Positions 9,501-30,085 of a DNA stretch of 31,162 nucleotides are shown one piece after another. Within the stretch, counting starts at the first letter, position 1, and each line of letters starts with the position of its first letter. The stretch is from a virus (taxonomy: Duplodnaviria > Heunggongvirae > Uroviricota > Caudoviricetes), in IMG/VR virus record IMGVR_UViG_2582580984_000003; one strand, 5' to 3'. Under the pieces are notes generated by a model. The model ran no database searches. It saw only the letters and a program-made list of their open reading frames with translations, and was not told where the DNA came from. Made by a program: the position numbers and the translations under genes.

Positions 9501-9663
9501 GGGCGGCCTGAGTCTGACGCTCCATAAAACGCTGCATACGGGCAGAAGACCGTTCTGCATCGCTGGCTGCACCATTCAGAAGGTTTTTGATACGGGGAAT
9601 TTCATTTTTAAACTCTGCCGCATCAATCCCCAAATCAATGACCAGGTTAGCTATCTGGTCCAT
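6598..9663 (-). CDS. H: Tail tape measure protein H
   Basis: ORF-track ORF is 1031 aa from a TTG; trimmed to ATG at 9663..9661, preceded by GGAGGTG (1021 aa). Coiled-coil Q/E/R/A-rich core; C-terminus NNDGTNGQIGPAALKVVYDLGKK..RDGG matches the lambda gpH C-terminal motif. Confidence 0.88.
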   Translation of the reverse strand: MDQIANLVIDLGIDAAEFKNEIPRIKNLLNGAASDAERSSARMQRFMERQTQAARQTTQAASSAATAASVHAQTVEKNAQAHERMAREVEKTRQRMEALSQKIREEQAQAMALAEAQDKAAAAFYRQIDSVKQASAGLQELQRIQQQIRQARNSGGIGQQDYLALISEVTAKTRVLTQAEEEATRQKVAFIRQLKEQATRQNLSSSELLRARAAQLGVSSAAEVYIRKMEQAGKATHSLGLKSAAARQEIGVLIGELARGNLGALRGSGITLANRAGWIDTLMSPKGMMLGGVIGGIAAAVYGLGKAWYDGQKEGEEFNRQLSLTGHYAGVTAGQLWTLSRAISGNGITQHAAVGALAQVVGSGAFRGNDISMVARAAAQMERSVGQSVSDTISQFKRLKDDPVNAAKALDNELHFLTATQLEQIRVLGEQGRSSDAARIAMSALAEETGRRTADIDNNLNALGSTLKYLSDLWSRFWDAAMNIGREDSLDAQIATLQEKVSRAKRLPWTASSSQVEYDQQRLNDLQEKKRQKDLQDAKEQAERNYQEQQKRRNAENAALNRMNETEAARHQREIARINAMQYADQAVRDAAIQRENERYEKALASGKKKTRETRNDEATRLLLQYSQQQAQVEGQIAAARQSAGIATDRMTEAHKQLLALQQRISDLDGKKLTADEKSVLARKDELIQALTLLDVKQQELQKQTALNDLKKKTIQLTSQLAEEERAQRQQHDQDIATVGMGDQQRQRYQVQLSLRQKYQQQLEQLRRDSEQKGTYNTDDYRKAEQALTESLNRQLNENRRYWQQLEIAQGNWKNGVLRAFQDFTVDADNTAGTAEQVFSSAFSNMGNGLATFVTTGKLNFKSFTSSVLSDMAKILAQATMMKSIKGIGSVLGFDLSSLSLNANGGIYQSADLSRYSGTVVNRPTFFAFAKGAGVMGEAGPEAILPLRRGADGKLGVVADIGGSGMAMFAPQYNIEINNDGTNGQIGPAALKVVYDLGKKAAADFMQQQARDGGRLSGAYR

Positions 9664-9964
9664 AACGCACACCTCCGGAAATACCTTCCCCAAGATGCAT
9701 CAGTTCTTCGTCCGTTCGCTCCGGTATCCCGTTCTCTTCCGGTAAAAGGCTGAAATCAGCCACCGCAGCATCACTGCTGCCGGACACCATTCTCACGATC
9801 AATGCCTTCAGCGAGGCAAACTGCGCATCCATCCACACATCACTGAAGCTCTGCATCCGGAAATAATCGCCCCACTCACCAAGCTCAGTGGCCGACATTT
9901 CCGACAGCATCCGCCGCCAGTCTGCCCGCCGGAACTCCCGGGCAAGCCGCATGACAAACTGCAT
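9647..9964 (-). CDS. T: T segment of tail assembly chaperone G-T (expressed by -1 frameshift from G)
   Basis: Open frame in the -1 frame relative to G, overlapping the G 3' end; slippery-like heptamer G GAA AAG (forward 9979..9985) lies just before the G stop; position between G and H as in lambda. Confidence 0.75.
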   Translation of the reverse strand: MQFVMRLAREFRRADWRRMLSEMSATELGEWGDYFRMQSFSDVWMDAQFASLKALIVRMVSGSSDAAVADFSLLPEENGIPERTDEELMHLGEGISGGVRYGPDS

Positions 9965-9972
9965 TTCCCGCG

Positions 9973-10362
9973 TCAGGACTTTTCCGGCGTCAGCACCTCA
10001 TGCTCCAAATCCCCGGCATTATCAATGGCCCCCATACCGCTCAGCGACAGAACCATCTCCGCCCCCGCACCCAGGGCATCATACGACCATGTTGTAATAA
10101 CGGATGCGTAAAGCGTCTCAACATCCTGAGACTGTTCCGCATTCCACAGTGAGCGGGAAACCAGCCAGGCATTGATATCCATCCCCATCCGCAGAAAAGC
10201 AATCTGTCGTTCAGCCTCCGGCAGTTCTCCCTCCCCGGCATCAAACTTTGCCGTTCGCTGCTGAACAAACGTCAGATATTCAATTCTCTGCAGCCCGGAC
10301 AGCTCACTGAGCACCACGGACTGTTTTTCATAATTAAACGTGTCCTGTTTCAGAAACATCAT
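9973..10362 (-). CDS. G: Tail assembly chaperone G
   Basis: ORF-track start (10401) lies inside a terminator-like hairpin; trimmed to ATGATG at 10362/10359 preceded by GGTGGAG. N-terminus MMFLKQDTF resembles lambda gpG MFLKTESF. Confidence 0.8.
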   Translation of the reverse strand: MMFLKQDTFNYEKQSVVLSELSGLQRIEYLTFVQQRTAKFDAGEGELPEAERQIAFLRMGMDINAWLVSRSLWNAEQSQDVETLYASVITTWSYDALGAGAEMVLSLSGMGAIDNAGDLEHEVLTPEKS

Positions 10363-10375
10363 GTTCTCCACCTGT

Positions 10376-10399
10376 AAAAAAGCCCCGAATAACCGGGGC
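10376..10399 (-). terminator. Intrinsic terminator-like hairpin between V and G
   Basis: Minus-strand GCCCCG-GTTATT-CGGGGC followed by TTTTTT, 20 nt after the V stop codon and just before the G RBS. Confidence 0.45.
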
Positions 10400-10419
10400 A
10401 AATGATGAGTATCGTCCTG

Positions 10420-11163
10420 TTAACCTGCTGCGCTGACAGTCACCGCAGCCACAGCCACAAAATTCCCGTCAGCGGTCATGCCCACAATGCTGACACTGCC
10501 CTGCTTCACGCCTTTCACCGTGGCCACAAGCCCGTTCAGGGTCACCGTGGCAGTCTGTGGATCTGTCGAATGCACACTGATCGCTTTGTCACTGGCTCCG
10601 TCAGGTTTTACTGTAAAGGTCAGCGTGGTGGTTGCTCCCACTTTTACACTGGCAGATGCCGGTGCCACCGTCAGCCCGGTAACGCTCACTGTTTCAGTGC
10701 CTTCCTCTGCCAGATACGGACGCCCCACACCGCTGATTTTCACTGTGCGGGTCATCACGTCTTTTGAGGCAATGGTTTTACCCAGTGAACTCAGCCAGCC
10801 ACGGAAAACATCAACAGTACCGTTGGGATATTTGATACGAAACGCGCAGACTTCACCGGAGTCGAACAACTGAACCAGTTTTTTCTGCCCGCTGTCACCC
10901 GGACGCCAGGCCAGCGTCGCCGAAGTATCACCAACGGATTTCTGCCCCTGGGTTGTCGTTTTCCAGTCTGCATCTTCATCATCGAGATAAGTGTCATCTT
11001 CTGCATCAGCGGTCATTTCGCCAGGTTGCAGATCCTTCACCATCGCAAGACGCAGCCAGTCAGTGTCCGACAAAGGATTCGCAAACGCATCGCCGTTGCC
11101 GGTATACATCCAGAACGTCGTCCCCGCACCTTTCGTCTTTGCCAGTGGATTTGGTGTGGTCAT
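10420..11163 (-). CDS. V: Major tail tube protein V with C-terminal Ig-like domain
   Basis: ORF-track N-terminal extension rejected; ATG at 11163..11161 preceded by AAGGAGGTG. N-terminus MTTPNPLAKTKGAGTTFWMYTGNGD..ANPLSD resembles lambda gpV; C-terminal ~90 aa is Thr/Val-rich Ig-like. Confidence 0.9.
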   Translation of the reverse strand: MTTPNPLAKTKGAGTTFWMYTGNGDAFANPLSDTDWLRLAMVKDLQPGEMTADAEDDTYLDDEDADWKTTTQGQKSVGDTSATLAWRPGDSGQKKLVQLFDSGEVCAFRIKYPNGTVDVFRGWLSSLGKTIASKDVMTRTVKISGVGRPYLAEEGTETVSVTGLTVAPASASVKVGATTTLTFTVKPDGASDKAISVHSTDPQTATVTLNGLVATVKGVKQGSVSIVGMTADGNFVAVAAVTVSAAG

Positions 11164-12449: not shown

Positions 12450-12765
12450 TGAGTTTTACCGGCACTTCTTCTGCACTGGTTCCGGCATCTGCCCAGACAA
12501 CCCCGACCAGCGGATCAGAGCCACTGTTAGTCAGCTGAACTTTTCCGGACTTCAGATAAACCTTCTTACCCGTTTTCATATCATCCGTTTTCAGCTTAGG
12601 CAGCATAAACACACCTTCGGTCATGCCGTCGCCTGTTTCACCCTGTGGAATATCGGTCAGCGCCACCGCAAAAACATCACCCACCTGCACCAGATCTCCG
12701 CTGCTGATGGCTGCACTGGCAACAATCGCCACCGTTTTTCCTTCTTCTACAAAATTCTTTGCCAT
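12442..12765 (-). CDS. Small head-associated protein (DUF2190-like; possible decoration or cement protein)
   Basis: ORF trimmed to ATG at 12765..12763 preceded by GGAGACAGTT; 107 aa, Gly/Val-rich, immediately downstream of the capsid gene. Confidence 0.5.
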   Translation of the reverse strand: MAKNFVEEGKTVAIVASAAISSGDLVQVGDVFAVALTDIPQGETGDGMTEGVFMLPKLKTDDMKTGKKVYLKSGKVQLTNSGSDPLVGVVWADAGTSAEEVPVKLNV

Positions 12766-12850: not shown

Positions 12851-14809
12851 TTACGCCGTACATTTCACCAGACCGCGGTGATCAACTGGCGCGACACCGG
12901 CGTCAATACGCACTTTCGTTGTCACGCCATCCACACTGAAGCCCTCCATCTGATCAATATATGGCGTATCCACACCGTTGAGATAAGCCACTTCAATCGT
13001 ATCGGAGCCTTTTGACGCAGCCAGGTAGAAGGTGGTCTGGCTGTTATCATCAAGACGAGGCTCTGCAATAACGGTCGCAAAATCTTTCACCGGGTTAATA
13101 ATACCGGCGTTAATGTCAGCCCCCTTGACACTTGAGGAGCGAATGACCTGGTTAGCAACAGACTCCATCGCCGTCGGTACCAGTACGAACGCAGGACGAA
13201 TATTCAGATGACGCTCCCCCTCTTTCTGAACGCGCATCAACTGGCGGGCTTTATCCAGCGATGCCACGTCCATTGCAGCGCTCTCCAGTACGTTTGCATG
13301 TTTCGCTTTATCGAACAGACTTACATTATCTGTGGAGATTTTCGGGTTAGACGTCAGAATGGCATAAACCAGATCGGCAATAGTGGATTTCGCCGCACGG
13401 CCCAGTTTCATCGGGACATCGGTCAGCATATTCAGATCATCATTGATAATGGCCTGACGGGTGATACTGAACAGCTCGCCATAGGTCGCCAGTGCAATAG
13501 TGGCCTGTTTATCTCCGGTGGTGACGTATTTATATTCCGCCCCTTCACGCACCTGACGCAGAGCACTGAAGCCCCCCATACCCACACGATGGGCAATTTT
13601 AAAATCAGACAACTGACCTTTCCGCGTCCACTGTTCATAGGTTTCAGGAGCATCTTCCCAGCCCTGCAGAATGGCTTTGTTCGCAACATCCAGCAGAATA
13701 TTACCGAAGTCAGACGTACTGTGTGTGAACGCCGCACCGACCATCTGCATCGGGTTATAACTGGAAACACCAATACCACGTTCAGTCAGTGACATACGGG
13801 CATATTCACGCAGGGTCATCCCGTTGTAGACATTATCACGTTCAGTTTTTTCAAACCCGGCGCGCGCCATCAGCGCCTGGCGGATCCCGTCCCCCACAAA
13901 ATTACCGTTACCGGCATAAATATGAGCCGGGGTATTTTTATTGGATGGCGTGGACTCGCGCCCCATCTCGTTCAACAGCTTTTCGCGGGCCTGCTCCAGC
14001 GAACATTCAGGATCGGCAAGACACTGAGCCTGCAACGACTGATAACGCCCGCCAAACATGGCAAACAGATCATTAATACCGTTTACACGCGCTTTTTGCT
14101 CTGCCAGGACCTGCGCACGGATGCTGTTTTCATCCACCACGGGTGCTGCTGCCTGCACTGGCGTCCGGGAGGCTGCAGGTCCATCATCCTGTACGCGTGG
14201 AGCACTGTTGCGTGGCGGAGTAATCATATTTCGAATGGATTCCGGCATCTTTTTAAATTCCTCTGTACGTTTTGACTGAATACATGCCATTGCCTTAACG
14301 GCTGGTGTCACCTGATCAGCAAATCCCTGTGCCAGACATTCGGCACCGGACATCCAGGTCTCATCCGCCAGCATGGCAGCAATTTCATCGGTGGTTTTCC
14401 CGGTTTTCTGTGCATAAGCGGGTAACAGAACCGCCTCAACTTTATCGAGCAGGTCGGCATAGGTGCGCATGTCCTCCGCATCACCGCCCGTAAAGCCAAA
14501 TGGTTTATGAATCATCATGAAGGAGTTTTCCGGCATAATGACCGGGTTTCCCACCATCGCAATGACCGACGCCATTGACGCCGCCACACCGTCGACATAA
14601 ACGGTAATGGACGCACCATGTGTTTTCAGTGCATTAAAAATGGCGATGCCTTCAAAGACATCGCCACCCGGTGAATTAATATGGAGATTAATGTGGGTGA
14701 TATCGCCCAGTGCATTCAGATCACTGATAAACTGCTTCGCCGTAACACCCCAGAAACCAATCTCGTCATAAATATAAATATCCGCGTCACTCTGGTGACC
14801 TGCCTGCAT
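12851..14809 (-). CDS. Prohead protease (ClpP/S14-like) fused to HK97-fold major capsid protein
   Basis: Single 652-codon frame from ATG at 14809 (14 nt after the portal stop). N-terminal domain carries ClpP-like active-site motifs (GVAASMAS, MMIHKP); C-terminal ~300 aa looks like a major capsid protein. No stop separates the two parts. Confidence 0.8.
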   Translation of the reverse strand: MQAGHQSDADIYIYDEIGFWGVTAKQFISDLNALGDITHINLHINSPGGDVFEGIAIFNALKTHGASITVYVDGVAASMASVIAMVGNPVIMPENSFMMIHKPFGFTGGDAEDMRTYADLLDKVEAVLLPAYAQKTGKTTDEIAAMLADETWMSGAECLAQGFADQVTPAVKAMACIQSKRTEEFKKMPESIRNMITPPRNSAPRVQDDGPAASRTPVQAAAPVVDENSIRAQVLAEQKARVNGINDLFAMFGGRYQSLQAQCLADPECSLEQAREKLLNEMGRESTPSNKNTPAHIYAGNGNFVGDGIRQALMARAGFEKTERDNVYNGMTLREYARMSLTERGIGVSSYNPMQMVGAAFTHSTSDFGNILLDVANKAILQGWEDAPETYEQWTRKGQLSDFKIAHRVGMGGFSALRQVREGAEYKYVTTGDKQATIALATYGELFSITRQAIINDDLNMLTDVPMKLGRAAKSTIADLVYAILTSNPKISTDNVSLFDKAKHANVLESAAMDVASLDKARQLMRVQKEGERHLNIRPAFVLVPTAMESVANQVIRSSSVKGADINAGIINPVKDFATVIAEPRLDDNSQTTFYLAASKGSDTIEVAYLNGVDTPYIDQMEGFSVDGVTTKVRIDAGVAPVDHRGLVKCTA

Positions 14810-25685: not shown

Positions 25686-25707
25686 AAAAAACCCGCTCGG
25701 CGGCGGG
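25686..25707 (-). terminator. tR'-like intrinsic terminator downstream of the late promoter
   Basis: Minus-strand CCCGC-CGCCGA-GCGGG hairpin followed by TTTTTT, ~45-60 nt downstream of the pR'-like promoter. Confidence 0.6.
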
Positions 25708-25756
25708 TTGTAGAAACTCTTCTAACGTCAGGCATAAAAAGCCCATCATTATGACG

Positions 25757-25789: not shown

Positions 25790-26611
25790 TTACCTAGTTA
25801 CCTTTTTTAACTGCCGCTCAGCCCATGCTTCTTCAATATCAAACCGGGTCACCAGCGCATCATAGAATTTCTTAACTGTTTTTTCCCATGACGCGCGTGT
25901 TATCTGGTTTGTCACCTCGCATATAGCATTAAATGCCTCCGTTGATGGTAGTCTTTCATAGCCACGACCACCACAACGCTGGCAGTCTCTGACAACAGGC
26001 ATACCACGTTTTACCGACTCTTCACGATGAATGGCGACACCACGCCCACGGCAATCCTTACAGGCGGTGGAAACCTCACCCTTTCCGCCACACTCCGGAC
26101 AGGCAACTTTTACCACCTCCCTGACTTTTTTCCATTCTTCCCAGTAAGACGGATACACACCTTTCGTACACTTTGCCCATACCGGCGGCTTACCATCCGG
26201 ATACTGGACCTTGTTTGTAAAAACTATGCTTTCAATAAATTTTTCCCCATAGCAACAAGGGCACTGCTTTTTACTCGCTGCGCTGCGGGCATAATCCTCA
26301 AAAGCGTACGAAGCCATAATGCGCATCACTACCGGTTTTATTTCTGCCGGAAGTTTTCTCAACGCCGCCACACGATCGCACCGACTGAGTGCATAATCTG
26401 CCAGTAATTCTGTTGCCCGCGCCCTGTCATTCATACTGATGCCCATTTTCCCCAGGAACGCAGAAAAACCCATCTCAGCCCGATTCTGTGTCATGCCCTG
26501 CGCGGCCATCACATCAGTGATACTCAGCGCATCTTTTGACGTTGAGGCCGATGCATCGGTCAGGCCAGGGGATTTTGGGGAGTAGTATTTCGGTAAATCT
26601 TCCAGTTTCAT
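25790..26611 (-). CDS. Q: Late-gene antiterminator Q (QuuQ-like)
   Basis: 273 aa; four Cys pairs (CPCC, CPEC, CKDC, CQRC) forming zinc-finger-like clusters; located directly upstream of the pR'/tR' pair. Confidence 0.8.
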   Translation of the reverse strand: MKLEDLPKYYSPKSPGLTDASASTSKDALSITDVMAAQGMTQNRAEMGFSAFLGKMGISMNDRARATELLADYALSRCDRVAALRKLPAEIKPVVMRIMASYAFEDYARSAASKKQCPCCYGEKFIESIVFTNKVQYPDGKPPVWAKCTKGVYPSYWEEWKKVREVVKVACPECGGKGEVSTACKDCRGRGVAIHREESVKRGMPVVRDCQRCGGRGYERLPSTEAFNAICEVTNQITRASWEKTVKKFYDALVTRFDIEEAWAERQLKKVTR

Positions 26612-28760: not shown

Positions 28761-28789
28761 AATAAAAACAAAAACCCGCCGAAGCGGGT
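28761..28789 (-). terminator. Intrinsic terminator downstream of hok
   Basis: Minus-strand ACCCGC-TTCG-GCGGGT hairpin followed by TTTTTGTTTTTATTTT. Confidence 0.65.
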
Positions 28790-28858
28790 TAAGTGCGGGT
28801 GCGTTGAGGATGCCTGCCACATCAGAGGTGGCGAGGGATTTCTCCCTCGCCGGGTCTC

Positions 28859-29014
28859 TTACTCCTCAGGTTCGTAAGCTGTGAAGACAGCGACCTCCGT
28901 CTGCCCGGTTCGGATTCGTACCTCGCAGAGGTCTTTCCTCGTTACCAGTGCCGTCACTATGACGGTTAAACAGATGACGATCAGGGCGATTAACATCGCC
29001 TTTTGCTGCTTCAT
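28859..29014 (-). CDS. hokD: Hok/Gef-family membrane toxin (HokD/RelF-like)
   Basis: 51 aa from ATG at 29014 with AAGGAG RBS: MKQQKAMLIALIVICLTVIVTALVTRKDLCEVRIRTGQTEVAVFTAYEPEE. The ORF-track in-frame 5' extension is not used. A GGCGAGGGA..TCCCTCGCC hairpin sits just 3' of the stop. Confidence 0.9.
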   Translation of the reverse strand: MKQQKAMLIALIVICLTVIVTALVTRKDLCEVRIRTGQTEVAVFTAYEPEE

Positions 29015-30085
29015 AGCCTGCTTCTCCTTGCCTTTCGGCACGTAAGAGGCTAACCTACATGTGTCTAGCATGAAATTGGCCTCAGATTAATGTTAAGCGT
29101 CTTGCAGGACGCGTAATGTTAACTGGGGCTTTTCTCTATCTGCCGTTGGTGTTCATGCCCGAGGCAGATAGCCTCAAGCACCCGCAGCCATTCTACTTAA
29201 CTACCGTTACCTCGCCAATGTGAAATCAGTCAGAAAGGCGATCCATAAGAACAATAGCAAGACAATAAATCGCCATTACAGCCGTAATAGCCAGCGCACA
29301 TTTGAGAACCAGCACCACAACCTCCTGTATTGGACGTACACCAGTCCTGATGAATATGAGGCTGTCTCGTCAGTGATTCAATACAACTATTGGGTATAGT
29401 TTCTCTGATTTTTTCTGTGGAAATGGGGCTCAACCACTAGTCATTTAATACGCAAAGTCCGACACAAGCTAACCTTCTAGTCCGCTTTGAGCGATGAGCG
29501 GACATCGACTTTAAAAAACACTAGCGTAAACAGGAAGGCAGTTATGATCCAGAATGAATACTCACTACCTCTTTGACTAAAATGATGATAAGTGCTCATT
29601 TGATGATAATTAACATGTTTTTTAATAATTAAAGCTAACATAATAATTTAACGAATATTCTTTGCTTTCTGAATAATAAACCTAGAGCAAACTAAATGAC
29701 ATCACCAGGACTTAACACCATAGGGTTGGTTTCGAATATTCTTGGCGTGATATTAATTTTTCTTTTGATTACCACAATCCTCTCATAATGAGGGAGTGTC
29801 ACTGGCATTGGAAGATAATACGCAATTGAATGATGGAACTACTGTCAAATAAAAGAACTTAAAAACAAAAAAAGAAGTATATTTACAATATCTTTCGTAT
29901 ACTTAGCGTTAGCATTAATGTTCACGGATTCGTATTGCAATTCTTATCAATTCTACCTGACTTGCAAATTTAATTGACTCGTAACATCTGCAACCCCACA
30001 TTTAACAAAAAGCAGATAGAATAATTGAAGGATATAGTCTAGCTAAGTTAAATGTGGGTGCGTTTTATTTTACATCAATATATTT

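Follow-up and report, generated by a model that had tools for sequence, protein, structure and literature searches.

Intrinsic terminators within antiterminated late operons are a long-noted oddity without a known function (PMC8022706). Casjens and colleagues found them to be common, stated that 'their roles are not known' and named as candidate roles partial termination or the blocking of non-antiterminated transcription (PMC8022706). In P22-like phages such as phage L, intrinsic terminators are predicted at the ends of structural modules in an antiterminated late operon served by a single promoter (Zaworski et al., PMC8022706). In the Cluster O mycobacteriophages, which are siphoviruses, a stem-loop directly follows the major tail subunit gene (PMC4351075). 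As for the antiterminator, Q-lambda is described as blocking the formation of the terminator hairpin (PMC9388147).

The closest annotated counterparts of the element described here lie between gene V, for the major tail protein, and gene G, for the tail assembly chaperone. The same V-G site is labelled 'rho-independent terminator' in the records of mEp460 (JQ182728, 8751-8774) and Ayreon (MF807953, 8742-8782), in both cases as a computational annotation, and these records label further terminators after the protease/scaffold/capsid gene, J and lom. In N15, gene 13 (major tail) and gene 14 (the G homologue) are separated by a stem_loop at 9596-9613, which the Hendrix laboratory annotated as a 'putative rho-indep. 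transcription terminator'. A V-G terminator is already known as an annotation, hence ordinary.

The window, that is, the whole stretch of 31,162 nucleotides analysed here, is an mEp460/cdtI-like lambdoid prophage of E. coli, 95-98% identical over ~19 kb to mEp460, Ayreon, cdtI, PhiR55_1 and others. At the V-G locus itself, the identity to mEp460 and Ayreon is 96-98%, with the same hairpin, T tract and flanking genes and nothing material different. The loop-closing base is T (a G·U pair) in the window and in mEp460, and C (a G-C pair) in Ayreon and most other relatives. The V-G junction sequence occurs in 1833 of 5426 complete E. coli genomes (34%). The features that define its operon are the following.

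25790-26611, minus strand: antiterminator gene of the Q family, heading the late unit (PF03589 Antiterm, E 1e-54)
Just upstream of 25709-25690, directly after the Q stop, minus strand: candidate pR', TTGATT ... TAAATT (pattern match only)
25690-25709, minus strand: tR'-like intrinsic terminator, 81 nt past the stop codon of Q (pattern match only)
10420-11163, minus strand: gene V, major tail tube protein of 247 aa (PF16461 Phage_TTP_12, E 1e-66, plus Big_2)
9973-10362, minus strand: gene G, tail assembly chaperone (PF06894, E 1e-40)
9979-9985, minus strand: probable G-T -1 frameshift heptamer G GAA AAG, from the sequence (G GGA AAG in lambda)
9647-9964, minus strand: T ORF (PF06223)

A first, sequence-only reading of this DNA had placed the hairpin in a Q-antiterminated late operon, between V and G. 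Both parts of that claim stand, the first as far as pattern evidence goes. The PF03589 gene and the tR'-like terminator upstream on the same strand are pattern evidence for the Q-antiterminated context, and the flanking genes, with T, are identified by their Pfam matches. The Q-family gene is annotated Q in mEp460_ev081, and the V homologue is annotated major tail protein in mEp460 and Ayreon. The candidate pR' would lie only ~45 nt before the tR'-like terminator, which implies a very short leader RNA. A consensus scan of the minus strand from 20968 to 6178, which weak promoters could escape, returned no sigma-70-like site. The -1 frame entered at the heptamer runs into the T ORF, and the tape-measure gene comes after G/T; by analogy with the lambda paradigm (PMC5009743), G-T frameshifting probably takes place here too. 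In the mEp460 and Ayreon records, G and T are two distinct genes and no frameshift is annotated.

The V-G spacer corresponds exactly to positions 10363-10419 and is read on the minus strand. Its elements are listed below in the order of the RNA; the V stop, the spacer, the U tract and the Shine-Dalgarno (SD) sequence are direct readings.

10422-10420, minus strand: V stop codon, TAA
10419-10400, minus strand: 20-nt spacer from the V stop to the hairpin
10401-10399, minus strand: TTG start chosen for G by the ORF-listing program, not a real start
10399-10382, minus strand: hairpin GCCCCGG-UUAU-UCGGGGC, 7 pairs (6 G-C and an inner G·U)
10399-10393, minus strand: 5' arm, GCCCCGG
10392-10389, minus strand: 4-nt loop, TTAT
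10388-10382, minus strand: 3' arm, TCGGGGC
10381-10376, minus strand: U6 tract directly 3' of the stem
10373-10366, minus strand: SD sequence of G, AGGTGGAG

The element has the genuine, canonical shape of an intrinsic terminator: its stem and loop fall within the usual bounds (~5-14 bp, GC-rich, with a loop of 3-8 nt) and a U tract adjoins them. Taken alone, the hairpin has a free energy of -12.6 kcal/mol (RNAfold). Both predicted folds of its 101-nt context, MFE and centroid, contain the hairpin, and the overall structure of this context is not unusual (z = -0.8). In a consensus terminator scan over 19 kb, the hairpin was the top-ranked match. It is non-coding, located past the V stop codon, and co-oriented with the late genes on the minus strand. 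Read on the plus strand, the palindrome precedes AAATGA instead of a T tract, and the element is thus unidirectional. The 20-nt spacer should be long enough to leave the stem free when a ribosome terminates at the end of V. The sequence-only reading had described a terminator-like hairpin with a T6 tract, 20 nt past the V stop and before the ribosome-binding site of G; the coordinates match exactly, and folding of the minus-strand RNA, the check that it proposed, does yield the hairpin.

Downstream of U6, the RNA reads ACAGGUGGAG (the SD), AAC and AUGAUG (10362-10357). The end of the GGAG core is 3 nt from the first ATG and 6 nt from the second, and the 6-nt spacing of the second (10359) is the better of the two. 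The G starts annotated in mEp460 and Ayreon correspond to ATG 10362; ATG 10359 aligns with the MFL start of the G proteins of lambda, Gifsy-1, Fels-1 and N15, and the match to the Pfam G model begins at residue 2 of MMFLKQ. The homologues, the Pfam match and the two phage records thus agree with the earlier preference for a downstream ATG. As for the claim that the listed start of G lies inside the hairpin, the TTG does overlap the first base of the stem but is not wholly inside. The 13 codons that this TTG would add, MPRLFGAFLQVEN, coincide with the hairpin, the U tract and the SD; the extension is absent from homologues, and it was rejected. We also tested across clades whether the flanks of the hairpin consistently mask the SD and AUG of G, and such masking was not found. 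In practical terms, the start of G is settled, and caution is called for with the TTG-extended ORF.

Terminator-shaped sites are not restricted to the V-G junction. A strict scan (perfect stem of at least 6 pairs, of which at least 5 G-C; loop of 3-8 nt; at least 5 T in the next 6 positions) returned 6 sites in the 31-kb window, all 6 on the minus, coding strand. By chance, 0.37 +/- 0.59 such sites would be expected, with a maximum of 3 in 200 dinucleotide-preserving shuffles. Two further terminator-shaped elements of the window are the following.

12827-12809, minus strand: sister element GCCC-GUAA-GGGC + U7, after the protease/scaffold/capsid gene (stop at 12853-12851)
708-689, minus strand: post-J terminator site of the strict scan

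The mEp460 and Ayreon records annotate a terminator at the same post-capsid place as the sister element. A second post-capsid hairpin, GCCCC-UGAAC-GGGGC (12795-12781, minus strand), is found shortly before the start codon of the cement-protein gene (ATG at 12765). The strongest strict terminator-shaped site of the window (14641-14666, minus strand) has an 11-bp perfect stem of -17 kcal/mol followed by TTTTTAAT; it is found inside the protease/scaffold/capsid coding sequence, ~145 nt from the gene start, and is unannotated in mEp460 and Ayreon. Another strict terminator (23296-23279, minus strand) follows two moron-like ORFs and immediately precedes the holin gene. Upstream of the Q region, a hok/mok-like (MokW) gene (28859-29071, minus strand) has a strict terminator of its own (28773-28790, minus strand).

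To compare the element among phages, we collected ~330 V-G junctions, using as queries V of the window, Gifsy-1, Fels-1 and N15 and adding individual phage records, and we extracted and compared the sequence after each V stop. A scan of genome contigs with G found close relatives only. A MAFFT alignment of the hairpins shifted the 3' arms at unequal loop lengths, and pairs were instead counted inward from the termini of the stem. Immediately behind V, a GC hairpin turned out to be widespread where V is 60-100% identical, in the following forms.

mEp460 clade: GCCCCGG-UUAU-YCGGGGC + U5-7
Locus L173: ACCCCGG-UAUG-CCGGGGU + U6-7
Locus L171: GCCUCG-GAAA-CGGGGC + U6
Gifsy-1: GCCCCG-GUUC-CGGGGC + UUCUAU
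Fels-1: GCCCCG-GCUC-CGGGGC + UUUGCG
L215 group: GCCCCG-UCUGU-CGGGGC + AUCUUC
N15 clade: a different stem, CGGGGC-GNRA-GCCCCG + UUCC

What is conserved among these junctions is the pairing. The six outer pairs of 26 distinct hairpins make up 156 cells, only 1 of which is non-standard and 7 of which are G·U wobbles; a double change has turned G-C into A-U in one lineage, and pairing breaks only at the innermost pair, beside the loop. The tolerance of G·U in the stem indicates that the constraint bears on the sense RNA, not on the DNA. Between clades, the stem is conserved and the flanks of the spacer are not: where V identity drops to 60-77%, the flanks have diverged past alignment and the 12 stem bases are intact. 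Conservation says little within the close clade, which is ~97% identical overall, and because the stems are nearly invariant, true covariation is thin, amounting to the one double change and the one clade with a different stem. In that N15 clade, the loops vary but are always of the GNRA type (GCGA, GUGA, GAAA, GGGA, GCAA). The N15 hairpin shares its position with ours, 4 nt after the stop of the V homologue and before the SD of G, and likewise has a 6-bp GC stem and a stable tetraloop. It differs in the stem itself (CGGGGC/GCCCCG), in its GNRA loop and in having no U tract (UUCCCC), which makes efficient termination unlikely. The N15-clade stem may be of independent origin, and the presence of two different stems at the same junction argues for selection at that place.

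The U tract has a different distribution. All close relatives have T5-T7, yet among the ~330 junctions the full tract is confined to the mEp460 clade, L171, L173 and L162, and we did not find it conserved alongside the hairpin in the distant relatives Gifsy-1, Fels-1, the L215 group and N15. That clades with a degraded U tract still keep the hairpin suggests that it is selected even where efficient intrinsic termination is unlikely. One clade of 12 loci (L158-L168, including L162) shows the reverse, a stem weakened to -4 kcal/mol with U7 kept, and it does not fit neatly with a purely hairpin-centred role. The hairpin is absent from lambda, phi80, mEp043, a Klebsiella phage and the Stx phages, including an Stx2 phage, in which the V-G gap is 10-15 nt. 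A Vibrio phage junction has no hairpin either, and hairpin-less gaps overall span 4-15 nt. As these sister phages build the same tail, the element must be modulatory and dispensable for V/G/GT assembly. From these comparisons, the conserved unit appears to be the hairpin and not the whole terminator, which is the modest added value of the survey.

The N15-type junctions (L095 1443-1475; L273, L275, L284, L297) have a peculiarity of their own. Their 5' arm, CCGGGG, has two possible partners, the adjacent GCCCCG or a downstream CCCCGG that overlaps the SD of G (GGAG). The alternative fold is predicted to be slightly more stable in several variants, at -14 to -15 versus -12.4 kcal/mol, and this alternative pairing could be a translational switch.

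We propose that the V-G hairpin is a functional RNA element of the Q-dependent late operon that favours V over G/GT/H, a reading to which we assign a probability of about 55%. An RNA polymerase without the Q modification would stop at the hairpin. The Q-modified enzyme would mostly read through it, Q preventing formation of the hairpin at the RNA exit channel; we expect read-through because of the mechanism of Q (PMC9388147) and because essential tail genes are located downstream. Once the RNA is clear of the polymerase, the hairpin would fold, and it might then act as a barrier to 3'-to-5' exonucleases. An mRNA ending after V, produced by a minority of termination events or by downstream cleavage, could thus outlive the G/T/H segment. 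The net effect would be an excess of V over G/GT/H, and the hairpin does sit directly after the tail gene needed in the largest amount.

The sequence-only reading had offered two roles, setting a high ratio of V to G/G-T expression or stabilising the 3' end of a processed V transcript, and the comparative data lean towards the second. The main reason for weighting 3'-end protection above pure termination is that the hairpin is retained without a U tract; conservation at the RNA level that is independent of termination signals is what would be expected of an mRNA-stabilising hairpin. Our literature search for a 3'-end study of the lambda late operon found none. It is tempting to go further and to speculate that the hairpin is primarily not a terminator but a conserved RNA element of at least two origins with different stems, which sets the V : G/GT stoichiometry post-transcriptionally across a large share of enterobacterial lambdoid prophages. 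It would do so by protecting the 3' end of a processed V mRNA, perhaps together with alternative pairing to the ribosome-binding site of G in N15- and Fels-1-types. We regard this broader version as a tentative possibility, on balance rather doubtful.

Other explanations of the hairpin have to be weighed against this proposal. It might serve as an insulator only, keeping transcription not licensed by Q, whether from read-in, spurious initiation or prophage leakage, from the tail-assembly genes, without any quantitative effect on late expression. This is one of the two options named in PMC8022706. The full U6 tract and strong stem of the mEp460 clade would suit such a function, as would the string of several co-oriented terminators along the unit, passable only to Q-modified polymerase. 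The hairpin is, however, kept in clades devoid of the U tract, where termination should be poor, and insulation alone leaves unexplained why the element is placed directly after V and, in parallel, after the capsid gene. We therefore consider insulation as the sole role unlikely. A role in translation was also envisaged, in which initiation at G depends on the hairpin and its flanks; these would uncouple G from ribosomes that finish V or partly mask its SD and start codon, so that the amount of G is set at translation. In the MFE fold of the window, the AUGAUG start is paired with a CAUCAU located upstream of the hairpin; in Fels-1, an upstream UCCU pairs with a GGGA SD-like motif, and in N15-type junctions the 5' arm may pair with the SD-overlapping segment. 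The tight 10-15-nt V-G gap of hairpin-less phages is also compatible with coupling. Nevertheless, the pairing partners are different in every clade, the probability that the SD/AUG is unpaired ranges from 0.24 to 0.66 across clades with no consistent pattern, and the extra helices are missing from the centroid fold of a region whose z is -0.8. Control of G at translation is thus quite improbable as an explanation.

The hairpin could instead be a neutral leftover, the remnant of a module exchange or of an old operon end that persists through recent common copies. Its absence from several well-functioning sister lineages and the ~97% overall identity of the close clade are in line with this idea, to which we give little credence, as the stem is intact between clades of 60-77% V identity despite their diverged flanks, all stem changes preserve pairing and the loop changes preserve GNRA. 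Alternatively, the V message might give rise, from its 3' end, to an Hfq-type small RNA that ends in the hairpin and its U tail. Hfq usually binds through just such a module, a terminator hairpin followed by U residues, and the late regions of E. coli prophages do encode the small RNAs HnrS (PMC13502914) and StxS (PMC7547250). Another small RNA, sRNA-17, is encoded by an mEp460-like prophage of E. coli K1 RS218; it is 193 nt long and regulated by ArcA (PMC7719688). As it was found in an 'intergenic' stretch of >1 kb, it is not the V-G spacer. A pattern scan detected no promoter-like site inside V on the minus strand, and HnrS is nearly confined to EHEC and EPEC, whereas the V-G junction is found in about a third of complete E. 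coli genomes. An Rfam search of 10150-10650 with E up to 10 gave noise only, its best hit, RyhB, scoring 18 bits where the gathering score is 55. Neither a promoter of its own or a defined processing site nor a described family was thus identified for such an RNA, which we hold to be very improbable.

If the V-G hairpin does favour V as we propose, the tuning of V versus G/GT would add to the well-known G-T frameshift a second level at which stoichiometry is controlled, and it might provide a useful design rule for engineered phages.

How does this element compare with better known ones? The REP sequence between malE and malF, the puf operon of Rhodobacter and the T-phi terminator after gene 10 of T7 are cases in which a stable 3' hairpin or a partial terminator behind the cistron required in excess brings about differences in amount between segments of an mRNA. 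They have no sequence relationship to the V-G hairpin, and their effect on mRNA was measured, whereas for the V-G hairpin we infer it. The terminators of P22-like phages resemble it in lying within an antiterminated late operon but belong to podovirus virion modules with non-homologous genes. The stem-loop of the Cluster O mycobacteriophages occupies the same place, directly after the major tail subunit gene, but has a 12-bp stem and is found in an unrelated host and phage, where no Q-type antitermination is known. In lambda, a hairpin of full terminator shape, GGCCGC-CUGU-GCGGCC + U7, is present after D, between D and E (L003 590-625), and another, AUGGCCC-UUCG-GGGCCAU, after E, between E and FI (L003 1664-1681). 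The lambda hairpins differ in that they follow head genes, the V-G gap of lambda being only 15 nt long and having no hairpin. Like that of the window, they are terminator-like, are situated inside the Q-antiterminated late operon and come directly after genes for the most abundant virion proteins; lambdoid late operons thus generally have hairpins behind the genes for their most abundant structural proteins.
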